From NCBI GenBank assembly GCA_016713445.1, contig JADJPB010000001.1, forward strand, positions 449,000 to 512,999: DNA of 64,000 nucleotides, given 5' to 3'. Shown here piece after piece: positions 14,250 to 34,051 of this stretch. The notes beneath the pieces were generated by a model. That model ran no database searches and was not told where the DNA came from. It was given only the letters and a program-made list of their open reading frames with translations. Source of the DNA: Bacteroidota bacterium (GTDB lineage Bacteria; Bacteroidota; Bacteroidia; AKYH767-A; OLB10). The position numbers and the translations under genes are program-made. Position 1 is the stretch's first letter; each line of letters starts with the position of its first letter.

Positions 14250-17243
14250 CTAATAGTATTCTTTTATGTAGTCGTATGCTCTATTAAATAAATCCTCGTC
14301 CTTAATTTGATATTTTGTCCAAAGCACTTTTCGCAATTCTCTTTTTACTTCTCGTTCACCAACGGTCGAGTTTTGCCAACCGTCAAAGCGAACTACTCTT
14401 ACAATTTCGTCAATGTCGTTTACGATGCGTTCTACAATAGCTGGTGTTGTGTCGGTTTTTAATTCAAGAAACAATTCTGTCAATGCGGCTTTTGCATTTT
14501 TCTGTTCTAACTCGGGTTCTGATACTTTCTCAGCTTGTAATGTTTCTTTGGCTAACTGACATAGCTCTTTAATAAATTCTATTGAATTGATTAGTCCTTT
14601 TTCTGCTTTATCACGAATGGCTTCAAGTCTTTCGCTTAGGCGTTTGAATGTTGGATTGTTACCGTGTTTGTTTAAACGACTGATTAGAATTTTCAAAACT
14701 TTCTCTGCTTGTCTTGGGTCTTTCTTATTCATCAAATCTTCAATCACTTCTGCATCCAAAATCATTTCTTCCATGTCGTGATTGATGCCCGAAACATGAA
14801 TGTGCTCATGTATGAGTGCTGTTGTCTGTGCACCTAAAGCATGCCATAATAATCTGCCGTTGTCATCTGATGCTGGTTTTACCGAAGTGTAAACCTGCGA
14901 CAACCATTTGTAATCATTTTCAAATTGATTTAAAACTTGGTCGGGTGAAAGTGCTTCCCACAACTTTGTCAGGCTGCTGAAATCTTTTGCAAAGGCATCA
15001 CGTTTTTCGTTGGTATTGATACAGTCTTGTGCTTTTGATAATCCTTCAAAACCTGAAAGAGTTCTGTCAACTCCAACAAAATGATTCAAGCATTTTTCCA
15101 TCCATTCAGGCAGTTTGTCTTTCAATTCCTGCAAGTTGGTAATCACTTGTTTTACACTTTCTTCATCAAATGCCAGGGCTTTTGCAGTATCGTCAAAAAC
15201 ACCAAAGTAATCTACTATTCTGCCGAATGTCTTATTTGGGAATAAACGATTGGTTCTGCAAATGGCTTGTAAAAGGGTATGGTCTTTCAACGATTTGTCC
15301 AAATACATGGTTTGCAAAATCGGAGCATCAAAACCAGTTAAGAGTTTTGCCGTAACAATCAGAAATTTCAAAGGCGAATCTGCATCGTTGTATTTCTCAA
15401 CAACTTTTTCTTGCTTGTCTTTGTCCATTGCATACTTCTGTTTGAAATCAAAATCATCATTGGCTGATGAACTGATAACAACTTCGCTGGCTTCGGGATT
15501 TATCAAGAGGTCTAATGCTTCTTTGTATTGAACACAGGCCTCACGATCTGGCGTTACAATCATGGCTTTTAAACCTTCGGGTTCAACGTGTGCTTTAAAA
15601 TGCTCTACAATGTCGGCAACAATGGTTTTTACCCGTTCAGGTGATTTTAAAAACACCGCCATGTTAGCGGCTTTCTGACTTAGTTTGTTTCTATCTTCTT
15701 CACTCAGGTCGTTTGCCATTTCTTTAAAAGCAATGTCCAAACTTTCTTTGTCAATGTGATAATTCGGCAAACGTGGTTCAAAGTGCAAAGGCAAAGTTGC
15801 ATTATCTCTGATACTTTCCTGAAAAGTGTAACGGCTCATATAACCGCCACTGTCTTGCTCTGCTCCAAAAGCCCAAAATGTATTTTTGTCTGCTTTATTG
15901 ATTGGTGTTCCTGTTAAACCAAACAGAAAAGCATTGGGTAAAGCGTTTCGCATTTTGCGTCCCAAATCGCCTTCCTGCGTTCTGTGTGCTTCATCCACCA
16001 TTACAATAATGTTTTCCCGCTTGTTCATGTCGGGATAAGCATCTTTGAATTTGTGCACCATCGTAATGATGATTTTCCGTGTGTCCTGTTCTAATAGCTT
16101 GTGCAATTCTTTTATGCTATCGGTGGTAATCATGTTGGGCACTTCGGCTGTGTTGAAAGTGGCTGTGATTTGAGTATCTAAATCCACTCTATCTACCACA
16201 ATCATTACTGTTGGATTATTTAAGTCTTGTTGCTTTCTTAATTTCTGAGCAGCAAACAACATCAACAGCGATTTTCCCGAACCTTGAAAATGCCAAATCA
16301 ATCCTTTTTTTATTTTGCCTTCTCTTACCCGTTCTACAATGGCATTTGCTCCTTCGTATTGCTGATAGCGGCAAACAACTTTTATCTTTTTCTTCTTGCT
16401 GTTGGTGGCGTAAACTGTGTAATACTGTAAAATATCTAACAGCGTTGAAGGTTTGAGTAAATGCGTTAATTGTTTGGCTACATCTTGCAAACCGATGAAA
16501 TGACTTAACTCGTCCTTTTCATCTTCTAAACGCCAAGGTGCCCAAAACTCTAATGGAGTTCTTACGCCACCAATAAATATTTCTTTACCTTCTGTTGCAA
16601 ATGAAAATACATTAGGAACAAACAATTGCGGAACTGCATTTTCATACACCACATTAATATCATGTGCACCGTCAAACCAAGTAACGGCAGGTCGCACAGG
16701 GGTTTTGGCTTCTCCAACCACCAAAGGAATTCCATTGACGAACATTACAATATCGGGAATTTTGGTTTCTCTGGCTCGTAGCTTAAATTGATTGCAAAGC
16801 ACAAAACTGTTGTTTTTCAATATTTCAAAATCAATCAGGCGAATGGCAACATGTTCGTTGTTTTTGCCAATTGGAAGCGTTACTTCATTGCGAAGCCATT
16901 TGGCAAATTCTTCATTAGCTCTTACCAAACCAACATTGTTTACCGCAATGAGAATGGCTCTGAGTTTATGAATGACTTCTTCGGCTTTGTCAGGATTGGC
17001 AGCAATATCAGGATTGAGGCGGCAAAGGGCTTCTTTCAATTCCTTTTCTACAAACACTTCGGTAATATCCCGTTGCAGCAAATCGGCTTGTATGTATTTC
17101 CATTTTACGCCACCTTCATATTCTACGGCATCTTCTTTTACTACATTGCCTTGCACAGCATTTAAGTTCACCCCTGTGAGTTGGTGAATGATGAAATGCT
17201 CTACGGTATTTTGCTCGTTAAATGCCATGAGAAGTTTATACAA
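14250..17243 (-). CDS. hsdR: type I restriction enzyme R subunit
   Basis: 997 aa with helicase motifs GSGKS, VDEAHRTQEG and LTGTP, an HsdR N-terminal nuclease region and a C-terminal helical domain. Confidence 0.95.
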   Translation of the reverse strand: MYKLLMAFNEQNTVEHFIIHQLTGVNLNAVQGNVVKEDAVEYEGGVKWKYIQADLLQRDITEVFVEKELKEALCRLNPDIAANPDKAEEVIHKLRAILIAVNNVGLVRANEEFAKWLRNEVTLPIGKNNEHVAIRLIDFEILKNNSFVLCNQFKLRARETKIPDIVMFVNGIPLVVGEAKTPVRPAVTWFDGAHDINVVYENAVPQLFVPNVFSFATEGKEIFIGGVRTPLEFWAPWRLEDEKDELSHFIGLQDVAKQLTHLLKPSTLLDILQYYTVYATNSKKKKIKVVCRYQQYEGANAIVERVREGKIKKGLIWHFQGSGKSLLMLFAAQKLRKQQDLNNPTVMIVVDRVDLDTQITATFNTAEVPNMITTDSIKELHKLLEQDTRKIIITMVHKFKDAYPDMNKRENIIVMVDEAHRTQEGDLGRKMRNALPNAFLFGLTGTPINKADKNTFWAFGAEQDSGGYMSRYTFQESIRDNATLPLHFEPRLPNYHIDKESLDIAFKEMANDLSEEDRNKLSQKAANMAVFLKSPERVKTIVADIVEHFKAHVEPEGLKAMIVTPDREACVQYKEALDLLINPEASEVVISSSANDDFDFKQKYAMDKDKQEKVVEKYNDADSPLKFLIVTAKLLTGFDAPILQTMYLDKSLKDHTLLQAICRTNRLFPNKTFGRIVDYFGVFDDTAKALAFDEESVKQVITNLQELKDKLPEWMEKCLNHFVGVDRTLSGFEGLSKAQDCINTNEKRDAFAKDFSSLTKLWEALSPDQVLNQFENDYKWLSQVYTSVKPASDDNGRLLWHALGAQTTALIHEHIHVSGINHDMEEMILDAEVIEDLMNKKDPRQAEKVLKILISRLNKHGNNPTFKRLSERLEAIRDKAEKGLINSIEFIKELCQLAKETLQAEKVSEPELEQKNAKAALTELFLELKTDTTPAIVERIVNDIDEIVRVVRFDGWQNSTVGEREVKRELRKVLWTKYQIKDEDLFNRAYDYIKEYY

Positions 17244-18946: not shown

Positions 18947-20114
18947 TTATCCTAAAATTTCATTTAATAATTTCTGCTTCAAATTCTTCAAAGTTGTTTT
19001 CTGTTGTTTGAGTTGTTTAACTGTTGTGTCCAACTGCTGCAATACTTCCAAAATGGTTGCCTGTATTTTTAAATCTGGAATGGAAACTTCTAATTCTGCT
19101 AAATCTTTCCATTTGGTTCTTGGTGAAAGTGAACCTGCCGAAGTGCTAACTGCATGTTGAATAAAAGCATCTGCCGAAATGTAATACGGCAATAACCCTT
19201 GCAACATCTTTTTTGCTTTGGCTCTTATTACCAAAATATCACCTGAACAAATTCCATCAAAATCAGCAACAGCAACCTTCTTTAAGTAGGCTCTACGTTT
19301 ACCAAACAACACATCGCCTTTCACAAACCGTTTTGAAAAGGTTGTGCCGTTTGCAATTTCGCCCCAACCTTGTAACTGAAAATTATCTGCTTCAATAAAT
19401 TCTAAGCCAACAAATCGTTCTACTTCTTTTTCGTGTTCGGGATATTTTTTATCACATTCTGCTATTTCGCAAAAAGTGGTTGCTGTGCAATTCTTGCTGC
19501 TAAATAAATTTCCAAACTCAGGTTCTTTGCTTAACAAGCCATTCATCATTGTTTTTTGCAGCGCTTTCAAATTCTTCTCCTGCACATCTACCTGCTCCAT
19601 TGCAGTTTCTATAGATTGAAAAAGTGCGGTTATTTGTTTTTGCTCTTCGAGTGGGGGAAGGGGGATTTGAATTTTGGCAAGTATAGTTCTTGTAATCCCT
19701 TTAAAAGTTGTCCCTGCTGATAAGGAATGTATTAATTTTTGATTTCCCTTTAGCCAAAAAGCCAAGTACCAATTATCAATTTTTTTCGGGATTACAAACA
19801 AAATTTTCTAATGATTGAGATGTAGCAATTTCTTTACCTGCTATTGCCACCTCACCAACTGTTGCCCTAGTCGTAAATAAAATAGTTCCAATTGGAAGCA
19901 TTTTTGCACTTGACTTTTGAATTGCCTCATCAGTTAGTTTTTCATTAGTCTCTGTAATTATTCTAATTCTATCTTTCGGAATTTCTGTTGGCCCAATCCA
20001 AAGATTATTTCCTTTAAAATAATCCGGTTTAGAACGACTAGGTGTTCCACCGCCAACAATTGAAGCAACATTTTCAATCTTTACTTTATTCCATATTTCT
20101 TTTCTCAACTTCAT
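18947..20114 (-). pseudogene. hsdS: type I R-M specificity subunit, frameshifted in a T/A run (19780-19786)
   Basis: Fragments 19776-20114 and 18947-19801 each hold a target-recognition-domain-like segment and conserved helical spacers (LPPLEEQKQI; LKQQKTTLKNLKQKLLNEIL). Removing one A joins them as ..NPEK|IDNWYLAFWL.. Confidence 0.85.
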
Positions 20115-21588
20115 ACTTCTATTCCTATATTTTTGAGTTGAGAAAAAAGGTTTTCTAACGATGTATTGACTTCTTTTTGTCCTGTTTTTATTTGTGAAAT
20201 TAAATCTTCCGTATTGTGTTCACTGTTTATTGCAGTTTGCTTAACATATAATTGAATACTTAGATTGCCTTTATTTTCCAGCACTTCTTTGTTGTTCACC
20301 ACTTTTGAAAATCCTTCATCACCTTTAAATTTCCAATAAGCATCGCTTATCTTTTTTATATGCTGTGGTTCAAGCCAGGCATTAGTGCGCTCTATATGTA
20401 ATTCCTCTTTGGCATCAATAAAAATAATTTTACCTTTTCTTTCTTTTGGCTTCTTCATTCGGCATACCAGCAAACAACTTTCCATGCTGCTGTTGTAAAA
20501 CAGGTTTTTGCCTAAGCCAATTACGGCATCTACATAATCTTCTTCAATCATGCGTTTGCGTATTTCGGCTTCGCTGTCTCTAAACAAAACGCCATGCGGC
20601 CAAAGCACTACACAACGGCCAGTTTCAGGGTTCAGGCTTTTCATAATGTGCTGCTGAAAAGCATAGTCGGCACAACCCTGTGGCGGTGTTCCCCAAATGT
20701 TGCGTCCAAAAGGGTCGTTCATCCATTTGCTTTGGCTCCACTTTTTTTACGCTGTATGGAGGGTTAGCCATTATCACATCAAAGTTCTTAAGTTCGTCAT
20801 TCTCTAATATCTGCGGGCTGTCTAAGGTGTCTCCCTGCACAATCAAAAACTCATCTACATTGTGCATAAACATATTGATACGAGCAATGGCAGAGGTAAT
20901 GAGGTTAAGTTCCTGTCCGTAAAGTTTTAATGTTCTGTATTCTTTGCCTTGTTCCTTTAGGTGCAAAGCGGCACTCAGCAAAATACCACCACTACCGCAG
21001 GTAGGGTCGTAAATGCTTTCACTGCTTTTAGGGTCGGTAATTTGTGTCATCAGTTTCACCACTGTTCGGTTGGTGTAAAACTCGGCTGCGGTATGTCCAC
21101 TGTCGTCTGCAAATTTCTTAATTAGGTATTCGTAACCTTCGCCCATAATGTCATGAGGCACATTGGCCACTGTTAAGTCCATTTTACTGAAATGCTCGAT
21201 TAAGTCAAGCATTTTCTCATCGCTCATGCGGCGTTTGTTCGTCCATTGCGCATCGCCAAAGACATCATGAAGCATTTCAAAGTTGGCCTTTTCAATACCT
21301 TGTAAGTGCTTTTTGTAAAAAGGCTCCGACATCAATGGTCCTTTTTCTCACATCTTCCCAATGGCAACCATTTGGAATTTGAAACCGGTGATTTTCATTT
21401 AATTCCGCATAGCTTTTATCCCCAGCAGAGTCAATAAAAGCCTGCTCAAATTCTTCATCCCAAACATCACTGATGCGCTTAAAAAATAGCAAAGGGAAAA
21501 TATATTGTTTAAAGTCAGCCGCATCAATCATTCCACGTAGGATATTGGCTGCTCCCCAGAGATAATCTTCTAATTGTTTTTGTGTCAT
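20111..21588 (-). pseudogene. hsdM: type I R-M N6-adenine DNA methyltransferase subunit, with two frameshifts (about 21300-21335 and 20742-20748)
   Basis: There are three overlapping fragments. The N-terminus is HsdM_N-like (LWGAANILRG), motif I is DPTCGSGG and motif IV is NPPY. The third fragment continues after an A7 run as ..SVKK|WSQSKWMNDPFGRN.. Confidence 0.9.
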
Positions 21589-21814
21589 TTTCTATTCTTA
21601 AAATTCGTTTGTAAAGTTAGTTTTATATTACTGAAAATGGTCATTGGTGCGTTGGCAAAAAATGGCTCTTTTGGTTTTGCGAAGGGTTGGCTTGTGTTTT
21701 AGGCACACCAAAAGATCAAAATTTATGTAGGCGTTTCTTCGTAAACATTTTTAAGTATCATATCGCTTCAATAAAATTATCAAATACTGGTTTAAAATAT
21801 TTTCTACAAAACAA

Positions 21815-23251
21815 TTAGAATTTTTTACTGGTCTCAATCGAGTTTTTCAAACGAGCAAGTACAATATCCCCACATTTTTTTGCAATTTCTTTCATTTCTA
21901 CATTGGTTATAGTTTGATTATATAATTTTTCAGTCAAAATCGTTTGCTCACTATCAATCTTCACAGTATATTTAAAATCTAGCAAATTGAATACTAAATC
22001 TTCATACAAGTCAAAAAGTTTTGTATTATTAAATTTATAACCTCGCCATATAAATGTTACAAATATTTTATTAATTTCTTTTTCCTGAATTGGTGTGTTA
22101 GGTTTACCACCTGAATATATTATACCAATAATATTTCCAAAATTTTGAACATCATTGGAGTCAAAAAATATTTGTTTTTCAACATATCTTAAATCTCTGC
22201 CTGGTGATTTTAGTGTGGTAGTCTCATAAGCATTATCTACTTTATATAATTTCTCATTTTCAATAAAGAGTTCATTTAATTTTCCTAATTTTTCTTCGAT
22301 TAAACTAAGCAATTCAATTAAAGTTTCCGTGAATAATAATTGTAGAACTTTACGTGATTTTTTTATTTGAACAAGAGAATTATTTTGACTACCTCTTTTA
22401 ATTAAAGAAATTTCTTTATCAAAATCTCCATCATCGTCTATGCTTTCTCCTTTAGCAGCGAGGATACTTTTTTCAAAAGACCAATTTAACTGTCCTATAA
22501 TATATTGGACAAAGTATTCAATATCTCCGACATCAGCTTTGTTTAAAGCAAACAAATAGTCCTTTTTTTCAGAATCTTTAATAATACAAGGGGGATAATC
22601 GTGTTTTAGTAGCACATAATTCATTAATAATCTCGCAACTCTACCATTCCCATCATCAAATGGATGAATCCGAACAAATTTGTAATGTAACATGGCAGCT
22701 AACCATACCTTATGAGTTTCGTTACTTCTTGAATGAGTCAAATAAAATTTAATTAACTCATGCATTTCTGATGGAGTATCTTCAGGGCTAGTATAGTTAA
22801 AGATTTCACCATTTTCTAACTGAACTGAATTAGGAAATTTTTTGTATTCCCCAGGTGCAATTTCCCTTCTTGTAGGCTGTCCATCTGATGTAATTGCATT
22901 TTTCCAAAAAGGACGTACTAAAATTAATTTATTTAATTCTCTAATAAAAGCTTCACTTAATTCTCTTTCCTTATCTGAAGCTGTTTCAACTACCATCATA
23001 ATTGCAACGTTATGAGCCTTCATTTCTTCGATTTCTCTTCCCGTGAAATCACCTGACACTTTATCAAAAATGAGAAGAAGTTCAGTTTGACTATATGTAA
23101 GTGTATTCCCTTCCATATGATTAGAATTATAATTCCAATCTAAAAGAAATTTTTTCCAAAGCCTTTTCTCATCTTGCTCTTTTAATGGCTTAAGAGTATT
23201 TAATTCAGACTTTAACAAGTCTAATTTTTGAAATAATTCATTTAAATCCAT
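21815..23251 (-). CDS. Fic-domain protein (class II, with N-terminal inhibitory motif) and an unassigned ~200-aa C-terminal domain
   Basis: The Fic motif is HPFDDGNGRVARLL. The upstream SNHMEG fits the (S/T)xxxE(G/N) inhibitory helix. Residues from about 270 to 478 have no motif I recognise. Confidence 0.9.
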   Translation of the reverse strand: MDLNELFQKLDLLKSELNTLKPLKEQDEKRLWKKFLLDWNYNSNHMEGNTLTYSQTELLLIFDKVSGDFTGREIEEMKAHNVAIMMVVETASDKERELSEAFIRELNKLILVRPFWKNAITSDGQPTRREIAPGEYKKFPNSVQLENGEIFNYTSPEDTPSEMHELIKFYLTHSRSNETHKVWLAAMLHYKFVRIHPFDDGNGRVARLLMNYVLLKHDYPPCIIKDSEKKDYLFALNKADVGDIEYFVQYIIGQLNWSFEKSILAAKGESIDDDGDFDKEISLIKRGSQNNSLVQIKKSRKVLQLLFTETLIELLSLIEEKLGKLNELFIENEKLYKVDNAYETTTLKSPGRDLRYVEKQIFFDSNDVQNFGNIIGIIYSGGKPNTPIQEKEINKIFVTFIWRGYKFNNTKLFDLYEDLVFNLLDFKYTVKIDSEQTILTEKLYNQTITNVEMKEIAKKCGDIVLARLKNSIETSKKF

Positions 23252-23612
23252 TTATACTTTTGTTAATAAATCTTGAAATTACCCAATCAAAGATATTCGA
23301 ATTATTTAAAGACTCCAATTCCTACTTAAAATTAGTTCGAAATCATTTATATAAATAGATTTTACTTATGTTTTTCGATTTCGGACAATATTTAGCAAAA
23401 AATCTTACTCATATTTTAAATTAAGTCGGTTTGATTGTCTTTTAAGCTTTTTTGAAGCAAAGGTGAAACCACTTTTACCTTTAAGCCTAAGGCAATAAAT
23501 GTATGTAGCTATTCATTAATTTATACTATATTTATTTAAATTATTTTTTATTGTGTTCGTTTGTCATTTTACAAAGTGAGTCTTCTTTTTCCTTAATACT
23601 ATTTTTATTTCG

Positions 23613-24224
23613 TCAATAAATTCCGAGAATTTCTCTTTTTAAATTTACTTCTGTCGAAAGTTCTTGCAAAAATTGTCCTTGAACATATTTTTGTTTAGAT
23701 GAAGAGTCTCCAAGAAAAATTATTTTGTCAAAATATTTCCCGTGTCTAAAAAGCTTATTCTCAGAGCTGCTTTTTTTATGACGAAGTGCAAGAAAATATT
23801 TGCATTCTGGAAAAATTGATTTGATGTCTGCGGCATAACTTGAATAGGTAATTAGTCCATGAGAAGTAATGCCGTTATACTTCAATTCACAAATAATTTT
23901 AGGGATAACAAGTTTGTCTCGATTGTTTTTATTGTTATGCAAGAAAATATTTTTAACTCCCTTGAAGTCTGAGATGTCCATTGTCTCATCATATATTACA
24001 ATGTCTTGATCTACGAAACCGAACTGAAGTTGATAACCAAATCTGTCGTCCTTGTAAAGAAAAATGTCTTTGAGAACTTTGCCTTTAAATACTGTTGCAT
24101 TAGGAAATTCGGTCTTAATCTCAGCTGAAATTGCTTCAATAAGATCTTTGTTCCAAAGTTCCTCGTCTCTGTCTTTTTTTTCTGTTTCTATTTCTGCTGT
24201 CAATGTGTATGTATTATTTATCAC
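23613..24224 (-). CDS. hypothetical protein, possible PD-(D/E)xK nuclease fold
   Basis: 203-aa ORF. A D..(35 aa)..ICELKY arrangement (VDQDIVIYD ... PKIICELKYNG) resembles a D...ExK restriction-endonuclease core. This is weak, eye-based evidence. Confidence 0.4.
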   Translation of the reverse strand: MINNTYTLTAEIETEKKDRDEELWNKDLIEAISAEIKTEFPNATVFKGKVLKDIFLYKDDRFGYQLQFGFVDQDIVIYDETMDISDFKGVKNIFLHNNKNNRDKLVIPKIICELKYNGITSHGLITYSSYAADIKSIFPECKYFLALRHKKSSSENKLFRHGKYFDKIIFLGDSSSKQKYVQGQFLQELSTEVNLKREILGIY

Positions 24225-24255: not shown

Positions 24256-24312
24256 TATCATTCTCCCTCTCATTCTCTTTCTCATTCTCTTTCTCATTCT
24301 CCCTCTGCCCCA
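24256..24312. repeat. CT-rich tandem repeat (ctcattctcYYt)n
   Basis: Read directly. It abuts the stop codon of the beta-lactamase gene. Confidence 0.75.
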
Positions 24313-25128
24313 TCACCCCCTCACTACTTCCACCCTAGCCTTCGCAAAATCCAGATTATTTGGATCATCACAAAGCACTAAATTGGCGAAGTAGTAGATG
24401 CCTTTTGTAGTTTTTGCATAACCTACGTACCAGCCGATGTCGGTGTTATCTTGGAATCCCCAGCCTGTTTTTGCATACAACTCGTAGCCGAGGGTATCGT
24501 TTACGAAGAGGATTTGGTTCACGATGTCCATGCTGCGTGGGCTTATGGGTAAGGTGCGGTTGTAGAGCTTTTGAACGAATTCTATTTGCTGTCGAGGCGT
24601 GATTTTAAGGCCTCCTCGCAGCCAAAATTGGTCGAGACCGCCCGCAGTGTCGCGGTTGCCGTATTGGAGTGTGTCGAGCCAGTATTTCATTCGCTCGCCA
24701 CCTACCCTACGCGCTAACTCTTGGTAGTACCAAACGGTAGAGTTTTTGATGGCCGTTTTGAGGTCGGTGTCGGCATTCCAAGCGGTATTGTTGCGTACTT
24801 TTTTATCCCAAGGGAGCACGAAGTTTTCGTCTTTGATGACACCCGTCTCTAACCCGATTAAGGAATTGCAGATTTTAAAGGTGGATGCTGGCGTGAATCC
24901 AACATCAACTAAGCTGTCGTTGTAGATGCTGTATTTGTTTTCCTGGGGATCGAAAAGGATGAAGCAGCCTGAGACATTGAAGGAGTCGTATAAAGCTTTG
25001 AAATCGGGACGAAGCTCTACGGTGGCAAAGAGGGAGTCTTGGGGTGGTTTGGGATTTTCGGTATGGCAGGAGGTGATCCCTTGAGAGGAAAAAAGCAAGC
25101 AAAGAAAGGCGAAGATCCGGTGGGACAT
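24313..25128 (-). CDS. class D (OXA-type) beta-lactamase with signal peptide
   Basis: The active-site motifs occur in the correct order: STFK, STV (SxV), YGN, KTG, then GWYVGY. The N-terminus is hydrophobic (MSHRIFAFLCLLFSSQGITSC). Confidence 0.85.
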   Translation of the reverse strand: MSHRIFAFLCLLFSSQGITSCHTENPKPPQDSLFATVELRPDFKALYDSFNVSGCFILFDPQENKYSIYNDSLVDVGFTPASTFKICNSLIGLETGVIKDENFVLPWDKKVRNNTAWNADTDLKTAIKNSTVWYYQELARRVGGERMKYWLDTLQYGNRDTAGGLDQFWLRGGLKITPRQQIEFVQKLYNRTLPISPRSMDIVNQILFVNDTLGYELYAKTGWGFQDNTDIGWYVGYAKTTKGIYYFANLVLCDDPNNLDFAKARVEVVRG

Positions 25129-25234: not shown

Positions 25235-26361
25235 TTAACGTGGCTTCGCTGCGTTTAAAAATCCTTGTATCACGGAAGCTGCATTAAACGACGCACCTTC
25301 TCCTCCTAAACGCATTTTCAATTCCTCAAACGATGCTAACATTTTGTCACGCTCATCCGTTTCTAAAATCTTTAACAACTCACTTTTCACTTGCTTCGGA
25401 TTGAGGTCGGCTTGGATAAGCTCCTTTACGATTTCACGATCCATCACTAAATTGACCAAGGATATGAACTTGACTTTGATGAGTTGTCGAGCAATCCAAT
25501 AGCTCACTTTGTTGGCTTTGTAGCACACTACCTCGGGTACACCGAAGATAGCAGTTTCTAAAGTCGCCGTCCCACTAGTAACTAAAGCACCTGAAGAAGC
25601 ACTTAAGATAGCATACGTTTCTCCTTGAATATGAGTGATATTTGATCTATTGTCAAGGTGGGATGTGTAAGCATCCATGACTTGCGAAGGAGCCATCGCT
25701 AAGAGGAAGTGGTAGTCATGCATGTCCCGCGTCGCCTCGAGCATGATGGGCAACATGGTGTCGATTTCTTGCTTCCGACTCCCCGGTAAGAGGGCAATGA
25801 GCTTTTTGTTTTCGGGGATGCCGTGTTTCTTTTTCCAATTATCGTCAATCCATTTCGAGTGCCAATCTCATCTAACAAAGGATGTCCCACAAAGTCGACC
25901 TCCATGCCCCACTTTTGGTAAAAGTCTTTTTCAAAAGGGAGAATGACCATCATTTTGTCGATGTCGCGCTTGATTTTATGGATCCGCGATTCTTTCCAAG
26001 CCCATATTTGCGGACTGATGTAATAGATGGTTTTGATGCCTTGTTCACGGGCAAACTCCGCTATGCGTAGATTGAAGCCTGGATAATCGATAAAAATCAT
26101 CGCATCGGGCTTCCATGCTAAAATATCTTCCTTGCAAAACTTGATGTTCTTGAGGATGGTTCGCAGGTTGGCAATCACCTCGATAAATCCCATAAAAGCA
26201 AGGTCTCTATAATGCTTCACCAACTCACCGCCTTGCTCCTGCATCAGATCGCCACCCCAACATCTAAAGGAAGCCTGCTTATCGTTTTCACGAATGGCTT
26301 TCATCAAATTGCTCGCGTGCAAATCGCCCGATGCTTCCCCGGCTATGACATAGTACTTCAT
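25235..26361 (-). pseudogene. lpxB: lipid-A-disaccharide synthase, one frameshift (about 25699-25756)
   Basis: The N-terminus is MKYYVIAGEASGDLHASNLM. The C-terminal fragment has ..SGTATLETAIFGVPEVVCYK... The two overlapping fragments sum to about 375 aa. Confidence 0.9.
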
Positions 26362-32935: not shown

Positions 32936-32967
32936 CTAGAAGCTAGAAGCTAGCAGCCAGAAGCTAC
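32936..32967. repeat. right arm of the inverted-repeat pair
   Basis: ctagaagctagaagctagcagccagaagctac ends in the recF stop codon. Confidence 0.8.
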
Positions 32968-34051
32968 CTCCTGCATGGAAACACCGTCAAGGGAAACCCT
33001 ATCGTTTCAAACACCGACTTTACGTGTTCTTCCTGCGTATCGGTAATAAATAATTGCCCGAAGGTTTCTTTGCTCACTAATTCCATCAATCGAGTGATGC
33101 GATTGATATCAAGCTTATCGAAAATATCATCAAGCAATAAAATGGGTTTTAGTCCGCACGCTGATTTGATAATTTGAAATTGAGCCAGCTTCAATGCTAA
33201 GATCACCGATTTCTGTTGGCCTTGCGATCCGACTCTCTTTACGGGATGATCATTCAATGTAAATTGTAAATCGTCTTTGTGAATGCCTGTGGAGGTGTAT
33301 TGCAGTGCTAAATCTTTTTGAAGAGATTTACTCAACAAGTTTTCCATATTTTCCTTTTCCAAGCTGCTCACATAATCAATATTCGCAGCTTCTTTTTCTT
33401 GAGTTAGGTAAGAATAGGACTCCCGAAAAAGGGGTAAGAAATTCTTGACAAATTCCTTTCTGGCATCGTACACTTTATGACCGTATCCTGCTAGTTGTTC
33501 GTCCCACACTTGCCACATAGAAGCGTCGGTAAACGAGCCTCGGGCGGTTTGTTTGAGCAAGGCATTGCGTTGTTGTAAAACGCGATTGTAAGCGATTAAA
33601 TCATCCAAATAGTTATGATCATATTGACAAATGATGCTATCCATCAATTTACGTCGCTCTTCACTCCCACCAATAATTAATTCTTGATCAATGGGTGCTT
33701 CCATCACCACAGGCAATAAAAACCAATATGATCACCCAAACGAGGATACTCTTTTTGATTTCTCTTGATGGTTTTCTTTTGTCCACTTTTCACAACCACC
33801 AATATTTCTTCTTCTTTCTCGTTCAATTCAAATGAACCTTTGATCGAAAAAAAAGATTCTCCATGCCGAATGGAATGAGTATCACTTGAATTGAAATACG
33901 ATTTGCAGAGGCATAAATAATAGATAGCGTCTAAAATATTTGTTTTTCCGCTTCCGTTATTGCCTGTAAAAGCGTTAACTCCCTCAGCAAAAGTAAGTTC
34001 GGCTTCGCTGTAATTCTTGAAATTGAAGAGAGTTAGACTTTTTAAAAACAT
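32964..34051 (-). pseudogene. recF: DNA replication/repair protein RecF, one frameshift (about 33704-33716)
   Basis: The N-terminal fragment has Walker A GNNGSGKTNILDAIY. The C-terminal fragment has the signature SQGQQKS and Walker B LLLDDIFDKLD. Confidence 0.9.

Follow-up and report, generated by a model that had tools for sequence, protein, structure and literature searches.

Fic enzymes encoded beside restriction systems are a familiar yet barely tested class of candidate immune genes. One such gene (fic) lies in a 64,000-nucleotide stretch of DNA from a Bacteroidota bacterium (assembly GCA_016713445.1, contig JADJPB010000001.1, positions 449,000 to 512,999 of the forward strand; hereafter "the window", numbered from its first letter). 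There it adjoins a type I restriction-modification (R-M) operon, and upstream of it is an open reading frame (ORF) whose product resembles a restriction-type nuclease of the PD-(D/E)xK kind. The question raised by this locus is whether the two genes act together, as a sequence-only reading of the same DNA had suggested they might, and what the Fic protein, with its long C-terminal region, could be doing next to an R-M operon. Overall, our data support that fic and the nuclease gene are probably independent pieces of cargo, each a single gene, which lie where an AT-rich defence island of 16 kb ends on the right, and that they do not form a common module.

A search for co-occurrence across genomes found none. 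None of the 20 nuclease loci (12 genome loci with flanks of up to 10 kb and 8 assembly loci) held a member of this Fic family, and none of the 93 Fic loci, including 80 from a metagenome scan, held the nuclease. An unrelated, short Fic protein of 259 residues is encoded 7 kb from the nuclease gene in one locus (L051), on the other strand. The nearest relatives of the nuclease (85-91% identity) are followed by a PDDEXK_9 or Mrr gene, with SIR2 and TraG genes also nearby, and the recurrent neighbour of the nuclease, where it has one, is a helix-hairpin-helix (HhH) glycosylase-like gene and not fic. DNA similarity between nuclease loci stops at the borders of the gene (23562-24192 in the window), which indicates that it moves alone, and fic is preceded by a putative promoter box of its own. 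It is thus highly improbable that the two genes make up a single two-gene defence or toxin module, despite their adjacency on the same strand, their G+C, unusually low compared with the rest of the island, and the lack of a terminator-like site between them, because they co-occur nowhere else examined. As the nuclease is not part of the Fic system, a construct carrying both genes would be the wrong test object.

The genes concerned, and those that flank them, are as follows.

21815-23251, minus strand: fic, 478 residues, a Fic domain of class II and BtFic type followed by a C-terminal domain specific to the family (ORF list, Pfam, PDB entry 3cuc_A, AlphaFold2 and Foldseek)
23613-24224, minus strand: nuclease ORF as first called, 203 residues (ORF list)
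23564-24203, minus strand: predicted PD-(D/E)xK nuclease gene as corrected, about 212 codons (homologue alignment, reading frames, position of the indel and limit of DNA homology)
20111-21588, minus strand: hsdM of the type I R-M operon, in three ORF pieces in the assembly
18947-20114, minus strand: hsdS, in two ORF pieces
14250-17243, minus strand: hsdR, a member of the type I R-M operon
24313-25128, minus strand: class D beta-lactamase-like gene, to the right of the nuclease gene

From right to left along the minus strand the order is the beta-lactamase-like gene, the 203-residue ORF, fic, hsdM, hsdS, darT, darG, hsdR and an SRA-HNH gene. In the window, fic adjoins the R-M operon and does not lie inside it: its stop codon is 226 bp from the ATG of hsdM (21588), on the upstream side, and the earlier description of both genes as sitting directly upstream of the hsdM region holds. 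So does the description of both as markedly AT-rich, with G+C at 28.7% in fic and 31.2% in the corrected nuclease gene compared to 38.6% in the window (and 37.2% in the R-M operon). The 203-residue ORF was correctly placed upstream of fic on the same strand, but the gap between them, given as 360 bp, is 312 bp after correction of a frameshift. At the right border of the AT-rich island there is a 12-nt tandem repeat, TCATTCTCCCTC, present in 4.1 copies at 24258-24306 between the beta-lactamase-like and nuclease genes.

The nuclease gene and the state of the locus

The upstream ORF belongs to a family of 89 homologues that has no Pfam family. Across 47 of these homologues the residues Q73-D74 and E113-L114-K115 (numbering of the 203-residue ORF) are invariant, and they include the predicted catalytic residues.

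24003-24005, minus strand: predicted catalytic Asp D74, within Q-D (invariant in 47 sequences)
23880-23888, minus strand: predicted catalytic E113-L114-K115, the ExK of PD-(D/E)xK (invariant in 47 sequences)

An AlphaFold2 model of a 91%-identical homologue was predicted with high confidence (predicted local distance difference test, pLDDT, 91.5) and places D72 on a strand at residues 61-81 and E111 and K113 on a strand at 102-115. The top Foldseek matches of this model were subunits of BbvCI (expectation value, E, 7e-7 to 5e-6; probability 1.0; template modelling, TM, score 0.46-0.53), and the further matches, to VC1899, Can2 and XPF, were all to PD-(D/E)xK proteins. That BbvCI subunits and other nucleases of this fold head the matches supports the nuclease reading, and the earlier suspicion that the D...ELK arrangement marks an endonuclease core has been borne out by both conservation and predicted fold. 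On this evidence from sequence and model, the upstream ORF is a predicted PD-(D/E)xK nuclease with a restriction-endonuclease fold. The resemblance to the R1 and R2 subunits of BbvCI, a type IIT enzyme, extends to the same D...ExK arrangement and fold, although identity is only 14-16%. The window protein is also smaller than the BbvCI subunits (about 210 versus 260-280 residues), and its family has no partner subunit or adjacent methyltransferase in the 20 loci. Half of the genome loci show, instead, a pairing of the nuclease gene with one for an HhH glycosylase-like protein.

The gene as first called is out of frame at its end and probably too long at its start. A +1 insertion near 23640 removes the last 24 residues from the frame. 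All homologues end in ...LKEKFxEFIxEIKxxLRKKKTHFVK, and in the window this ending is encoded one frame over and runs to a stop at 23564-23566. The likely start is the TTG at 24203, which is the start chosen by the gene caller and is near the limit of DNA homology. With the frameshift and the start corrected, the gene has about 212 codons.

The nuclease family is rare, with 12 loci in 185,579 species genomes, and its neighbours vary. One locus has Shedu, AbiE and a recombinase nearby (L001), another hsdR and Mrr (L020) and a third FRG, PLD, NADase and AbiEii genes (L021), while two loci have plain housekeeping neighbours in place of defence genes. We considered whether the nuclease could be the restriction component of a type II R-M system and rejected this, as no methyltransferase gene adjoins it in the window or in the 20 loci; the sole methyltransferase gene in its vicinity, of the N6 type, is 4 kb away on the other strand in L001. 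Most likely, the nuclease would be a stand-alone and possibly modification-dependent restriction-type enzyme, moving as a one-gene cassette among other nucleases (Mrr, PDDEXK_9, Shedu) with no methyltransferase partner.

A different partnership was observed elsewhere in the nuclease family. In 6 of the 12 genome loci the nuclease gene is adjacent to an HhH DNA-glycosylase-like gene: in five (L002, L005, L006, L007 and L008) it is coupled to a gene for a 260-277-residue HhH glycosylase-like protein, and in L010 to a Tag-like gene. At one extreme the two genes overlap by 4 nt, at the other they are 16 nt apart, and either can come first. The partners have weak hits to Ogg-HhH/AGOG, with an Adenine_glyco type in L010. 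The two genes may make up a system of glycosylase plus nuclease. Neither the window nor the subclade to which the window nuclease belongs has this pairing.

With a frameshift in the nuclease gene, decay is a possible reading: the gene, perhaps along with everything at the right end of the island, would be degenerating, and the broken nuclease, hsdM and hsdS genes would be true pseudogenes. The number of broken genes is consistent with decay, hsdM being in three pieces and hsdS in two in addition to the insertion in the nuclease gene, and hsdM is also split in a 95%-related operon (G506), at a nearby but different position. However, the housekeeping genes lpxB and recF, each in two pieces, are also split in the window, most of the split sites are at short homopolymer runs, and the completeness of the genome is 88% compared to 95-100% for most of its relatives. 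Because of these three features we lean towards assembly error, and we regard decay of the locus as a minority possibility, though one that carries some weight. The split genes occupy 19776-21588, 25235-26361 and 32964-34051. In the G506 operon (L138 12284-13685), the hsdM break is within a few codons of the first hsdM break in the window, and the nearness of the breaks in the two assemblies reflects either a shared systematic error or a hotspot.

The Fic enzyme and its C-terminal domain

The 478-residue product of fic has the parts listed here, from its motifs to its C-terminal end.

23108-23125, minus strand: auto-inhibitory motif S43-N-H-M-E47-G48, of the (S/T)xxxE(G/N) form (aligns with NSNHLEGN of 3CUC)
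22625-22666, minus strand: catalytic Fic motif HPFDDGNGRVARLL, residues 196-209 (sequence; key residues invariant in homologues)
22355-22453, minus strand: linker, residues about 267-299 (pLDDT 55-78 over residues 271-300; one helix at 276-289)
21818-22354, minus strand: predicted alpha/beta C-terminal domain, residues 300-478 (AlphaFold2 secondary structure, pLDDT 90-97)

The Pfam Fic domain (PF02661) matched residues 99-214 (E 1e-16, 62 bits against a cut-off of 24). The catalytic motif HPFDDGNGRVAR is invariant across the Fic family, and residues 196-204, HPFDDGNGR, fit the pattern HPFx(D/E)GN(G/K)R. Among 60 homologues, S43, E47 and G48 of the inhibitory motif and H196, P197, F198, D200, N202, G203, R204 and R207 of the catalytic motif did not vary. 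The sequence-only reading had recognised a canonical Fic motif and had taken SNHMEG for the auto-inhibitory motif of a class II protein, and both identifications are supported by this conservation and by the alignment with 3CUC. Both motifs are intact in the window protein. The inhibitory motif precedes the catalytic His by 150 residues and belongs to the same polypeptide, ahead of the Fic core, an arrangement that in the scheme of Engel et al. (2012) reportedly defines class II.

Comparison with solved structures gave a consistent picture. The best sequence match in the PDB was 3cuc_A (E 2.6e-81, residues 12-279), followed by FICD (E 1e-20), and an AlphaFold2 model of the 478-residue protein based on 60 homologues (mean pLDDT 91.8) was superimposed by Foldseek onto 3CUC with a TM score of 0.92 and a root-mean-square deviation of 1.2 A. 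3CUC is BtFic, or BT_2513, of Bacteroides thetaiotaomicron, which matches the N-terminal 270 residues of the window protein with about 46% identity; the two share the NSNH(L/M)EGN inhibitory helix and the HPF(D/E)DGNGR motif, but the 291-residue 3CUC chain has no counterpart of the C-terminal domain. These sequence and model data identify the window protein as a predicted class II Fic enzyme of the BtFic (3CUC) family, whose core structure has been available from structural genomics since 2008.

No antitoxin gene was found beside fic, in that neither flank contains a supported ORF of at least 20 residues, and no known RNA family was found there either. Inhibition must therefore be intramolecular, and Glu47 would occlude the site of the ATP gamma-phosphate in cis. 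A class I FicT/FicA toxin-antitoxin pair was rejected on the same grounds, there being no separate antitoxin gene and the inhibitory motif being in cis.

The window protein was also compared with SoFic (of Shewanella oneidensis and E. coli), a validated single-gene anti-phage Fic that AMPylates EF-Tu, an essential host protein, and whose toxicity is controlled by its C-terminal domain and by dimerisation (PMC12249575; bioRxiv 10.64898/2026.07.09.737422). The two are alike in that each is a class II enzyme that carries its inhibitory Glu in its own chain and has an accessory domain at its C-terminal end, and SoFic-type genes, too, occur in type I R-M operons (L139). Identity with the SoFic defence system was, however, rejected: the Fic_N (DUF4172) and winged-helix SoFic-like_C domains of SoFic are both missing from the window protein, where Pfam shows the Fic domain alone, and the NCBIfam SoFic equivalog scored 27 bits against a cut-off of 550. 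The same Pfam search showed Fic_N, Fic and SoFic-like_C in the true SoFic-type protein of L139. There is also no AS1-like small ORF beside fic in the window, and the PADLOC model of SoFic matched the Fic core only (E 1e-23), more weakly than PDC-S04. The latter, a PADLOC candidate for a single-domain class II Fic associated with defence islands, was the best match in the defence library (E 4e-37, with residues 23-251 aligned to positions 13-223 of a model that has 244; E values for three of its models 4e-37, 7.5e-31 and 1.4e-29). The PDC-S04 models, of 202-292 positions, cover the Fic core only and leave the extra 200 residues of the window protein outside.

These extra residues form the most distinctive part of the protein. 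The linker is the only low-confidence stretch of the Fic model and is the point at which the solved 3CUC chain stops (...GDFDK). Beyond it, the model has a helix at 300-323, a strand at 329-338, two short helices, strands at 395-405, 415-423, 427-432 and 437-443, and a final helix at 450-477. The sequence-only reading found no motif that it recognised in this region and pointed to remote-homology and structure searches, which returned a confident alpha/beta fold that matches no known domain by sequence. Residues 281-478 had no match in Pfam, NCBIfam, PHROG or the PDB sequences. Pfam gave nothing consistent in the C-terminal domain of 39 diverse members, and no SRPBCC hit, and a sequence profile of the domain found nothing significant in the PDB, the best match being 4fz4 (E 0.088). 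Searched exhaustively with phmmer, 1.84 billion representatives yielded 14 hits, every one a protein of this Fic family or a piece of one. Among proteins of 108-345 residues, a profile search for stand-alone forms found one fragment only, and the domain was absent from the plasmid and phage records searched. Foldseek of the whole Fic model against the PDB and BFVD returned only Fic-core matches among the 50 matches listed. Two ideas on its nature, drawn from the order of its elements, were examined with hhalign: an HsdS target-recognition domain was rejected (probability 0.1), and for the SRPBCC helix-grip fold a comparison with one AHSA1 protein likewise gave a probability of 0.1. As judged from these sequence searches, the domain appears to be undescribed and confined to this Bacteroidota Fic family.

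The C-terminal domain changes much faster than the enzyme to which it is attached. Among 60 members, mean pairwise identity was 20% in the domain versus 63% in the Fic core, and in the three closest homologues the identities of core and tail were 66 and 38%, 61 and 34%, and 59 and 32%. The rate of evolution of the domain is about three times that of the core. Near-invariance is limited to a few hydrophobic or aromatic positions (F329, Y444, G404 and Y428), no polar or catalytic residues are conserved in the 60 members, and the median isoelectric point (pI) is about 5.9. The character of the conserved positions and the pI speak for a scaffold or recognition domain and against enzymatic activity or typical nucleic-acid binding. 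Some relatives of the window protein are naturally short, at 268-296 residues, and lack the domain; together with the 291 residues of the 3CUC chain, they mark it as an add-on module. A role for the domain as a trigger sensor, as first proposed, would fit its fast divergence and its lack of conserved polar residues.

Fic genes and type I R-M operons

The sequence-only reading stated that Fic genes recur in the neighbourhoods of type I R-M systems, and this is true of the present family. Type I hsd genes were found in 7 of 39 non-redundant long-form loci, robustly in 6, mostly in the order hsdM-fic-hsdS. In four loci (L042, L055, L073 and L077) hsdM and hsdS closely flank a fic gene of the same orientation, and in several relatives it is spaced from the hsd genes by 4-16 bp or overlaps them. 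In L042 (G085), for example, the order is half of an hsdS, hsdM, fic, hsdS, three unknown genes and hsdR, and fic overlaps the start of hsdS. This rate of linkage, a tblastn-based estimate, is well beyond any plausible background (binomial p 2e-6 for an assumed 1%), and it is higher in long forms than in the shorter Fic forms of the same scan (Fisher p 0.04). All of the R-M-embedded copies are long forms with the C-terminal domain, and none of 6 complete short forms is linked to R-M genes. On a tree of the Fic proteins the R-M-linked members are scattered, requiring 7 changes for 8 rows (4 of 11 rows are linked in the clade of the window protein and none in one clade of 17 rows), which indicates repeated moves into R-M operons. 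Genomic association thus supports the view of fic as R-M-associated defence cargo. A family-restricted, fast-evolving domain in most members, combined with R-M embedding in about one in six, provides a concrete experimental handle.

Related R-M operons show how such cargo is arranged. Homologues of the window hsdR with 95% and 84% identity are present in two other genera of the family (G506 and G475), and the window hsdM is 82-86% identical to the hsdM genes of the corresponding loci, L138 and L139, being intact in L139 (491 residues). These sister operons share DNA with the window only from the start of hsdM (21588-21601) to the end of hsdR (14250). In L138 (G506:C1, 10666-12287) an AbiEi/AbiEii pair that overlaps the start of hsdM occupies the position that fic has in the window. 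In L139 (G475:C39, 10631-15180) the slot between hsdS and hsdR holds genes for a 743-residue protein, a radical SAM protein and a SoFic-type Fic. As the sister operons carry other genes at these places, fic, DarTG and the nuclease gene appear to be interchangeable cargo around a shared R-M core. A published picture of "embedded genes" in type I R-M operons agrees with this (bioRxiv 10.1101/2024.01.29.577857; PMC12255303). PrrC with EcoprrI, DarTG2 in the RRDM of enteropathogenic Escherichia coli and AbiE are, like fic, swappable accessory genes of toxin type in or next to hsd operons, a pattern also termed "guilt-by-embedding". RptR, the E. coli RRDM regulator, was considered as an analogue of the gene upstream of hsdM and rejected, since it is an unrelated 9-kDa repressor.

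We hypothesize that the Fic protein is probably a latent effector of toxin type, an AMP-transferase that would be self-blocked by Glu47. Dimerisation might lift the block, as might a signal that the C-terminal domain picks up, and the released enzyme could then AMPylate an essential host protein and stop the growth of the infected cell, by analogy with SoFic and EF-Tu. Several observations weigh against this proposal and the cargo reading of which it is part. The host target, toxicity and trigger of the family are drawn from analogy, and the 1% background behind the linkage statistic is an estimate. PDC-S04 is an unvalidated candidate that gave no protection in one test in a native host (bioRxiv 10.1101/2024.12.20.629700). 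About 80% of the long-form relatives occur singly, with housekeeping genes on either side, which fits cellular regulation equally well. A known fold of the C-terminal domain may have been missed, as Fic cores filled both Foldseek lists, and the locus, with hsdM, hsdS and the nuclease gene frameshifted, may be partly decayed.

The main alternative for the Fic protein itself is that it is a cellular regulator, which would reversibly AMPylate and deAMPylate a host protein, such as a chaperone or translation factor, to adjust its activity during stress, as FICD does with BiP. Its C-terminal domain would then be an adaptor for substrate or for dimerisation, and the R-M operon would be a chance neighbour. 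That most relatives, including the three closest, are solitary makes this a serious rival, and it is consistent with FICD being nearest to the core after 3CUC and with the outcome of the PDC-S04 test. In addition, a study of FICD and EfFic (bioRxiv 10.1101/323253) indicates that the glutamate that blocks AMPylation is in these enzymes the catalyst of deAMPylation. The distribution of the gene argues otherwise. It is present as a single copy in its own genome, and carriers of the family are 0 of 19 genomes of the same genus, 2 of 61 relatives and 10 of 401 genomes of the phylum (~2.5%). This patchiness, together with the very low G+C of fic, its repeated independent entry into type I R-M operons, its tandem arrays (as in L048) and its fast-evolving tail, is typical of accessory, conflict-related genes. 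We therefore consider a regulatory role unlikely, though deserving of attention.

A more ambitious form of the effector proposal is that the C-terminal domain is a rapidly diversifying recognition module which, through phage sensing or R-M docking, makes this self-inhibited AMP-transferase a widespread anti-phage effector of the Bacteroidota. We think this rather doubtful as a whole. If true in its R-M docking form, it would provide a PrrC-like guard with protein AMPylation as the output. PrrC with EcoprrI is an established precedent for such a guard.

More doubtful still is a functional tie between the Fic protein and the type I R-M system itself, either as a restriction modifier or as a guardian that HsdM and HsdS would silence via the C-terminal domain and that would be set free once an anti-restriction protein of a phage had put the complex out of action. 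The PrrC precedent, the tight placement of fic between hsdM and hsdS in several relatives and the restriction of this placement to long forms are all in keeping with such a tie. So is the distribution of promoter boxes, as fic in the window has a putative box immediately upstream, and a pattern search found no exact match between its stop and the ATG of hsdM.

23288-23295, minus strand: putative -7 box TATCTTTG of Bacteroidota type, 37 nt ahead of the ATG of fic, a match to the consensus TAnnTTTG only

A box before fic and none before hsdM hints at co-transcription of fic with the operon, in so far as a consensus match can; scans for sigma-70 promoters and terminators performed no better on the window than on shuffled sequence. 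However, R-M genes are lacking in the vicinity of four out of every five long-form relatives, and the C-terminal domain therefore cannot be an obligatory R-M docking module. In addition, the sister operons work without this Fic, the closest relative of the window protein (L013) is solitary, and PrrC, whose physical coupling to the R-M complex is proven, is an anticodon nuclease whereas the window enzyme is a Fic protein of a family found mostly outside R-M operons.

Some further features of the Fic genes and sister operons were observed. The closest full-length relative of the window Fic, with 55% identity (L013 8001-9431), lies between aromatic ammonia-lyase and halogenase-like genes in what seems to be a biosynthetic cluster of aryl-polyene or fatty-acid type. 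A metagenomic protein of 763 residues (P0014) has two Fic cores followed by one C-terminal domain. In L048 (G105:C2, 7977-11500), three BtFic-type genes of 444, 442 and 274 residues lie in direct tandem, and the inhibitory motif is altered in the first two copies (NSNNPEES and HSNNKRED). In the slot between hsdS and hsdR, which holds DarTG in the window, L138 has a gene for a 213-residue protein with no Pfam match (14918-15559). Of the proteins encoded in that slot in L139, the 743-residue protein has no Pfam match, the radical SAM protein (289 residues) is viperin-like in size, and the gene for the SoFic-type Fic (Fic_N, Fic and SoFic-like_C) ends 6 bp before hsdR. Upstream of hsdM, L139 encodes an 848-residue N6_Mtase-Methylase_S-HATPase_c fusion and a 389-residue protein of no known family.

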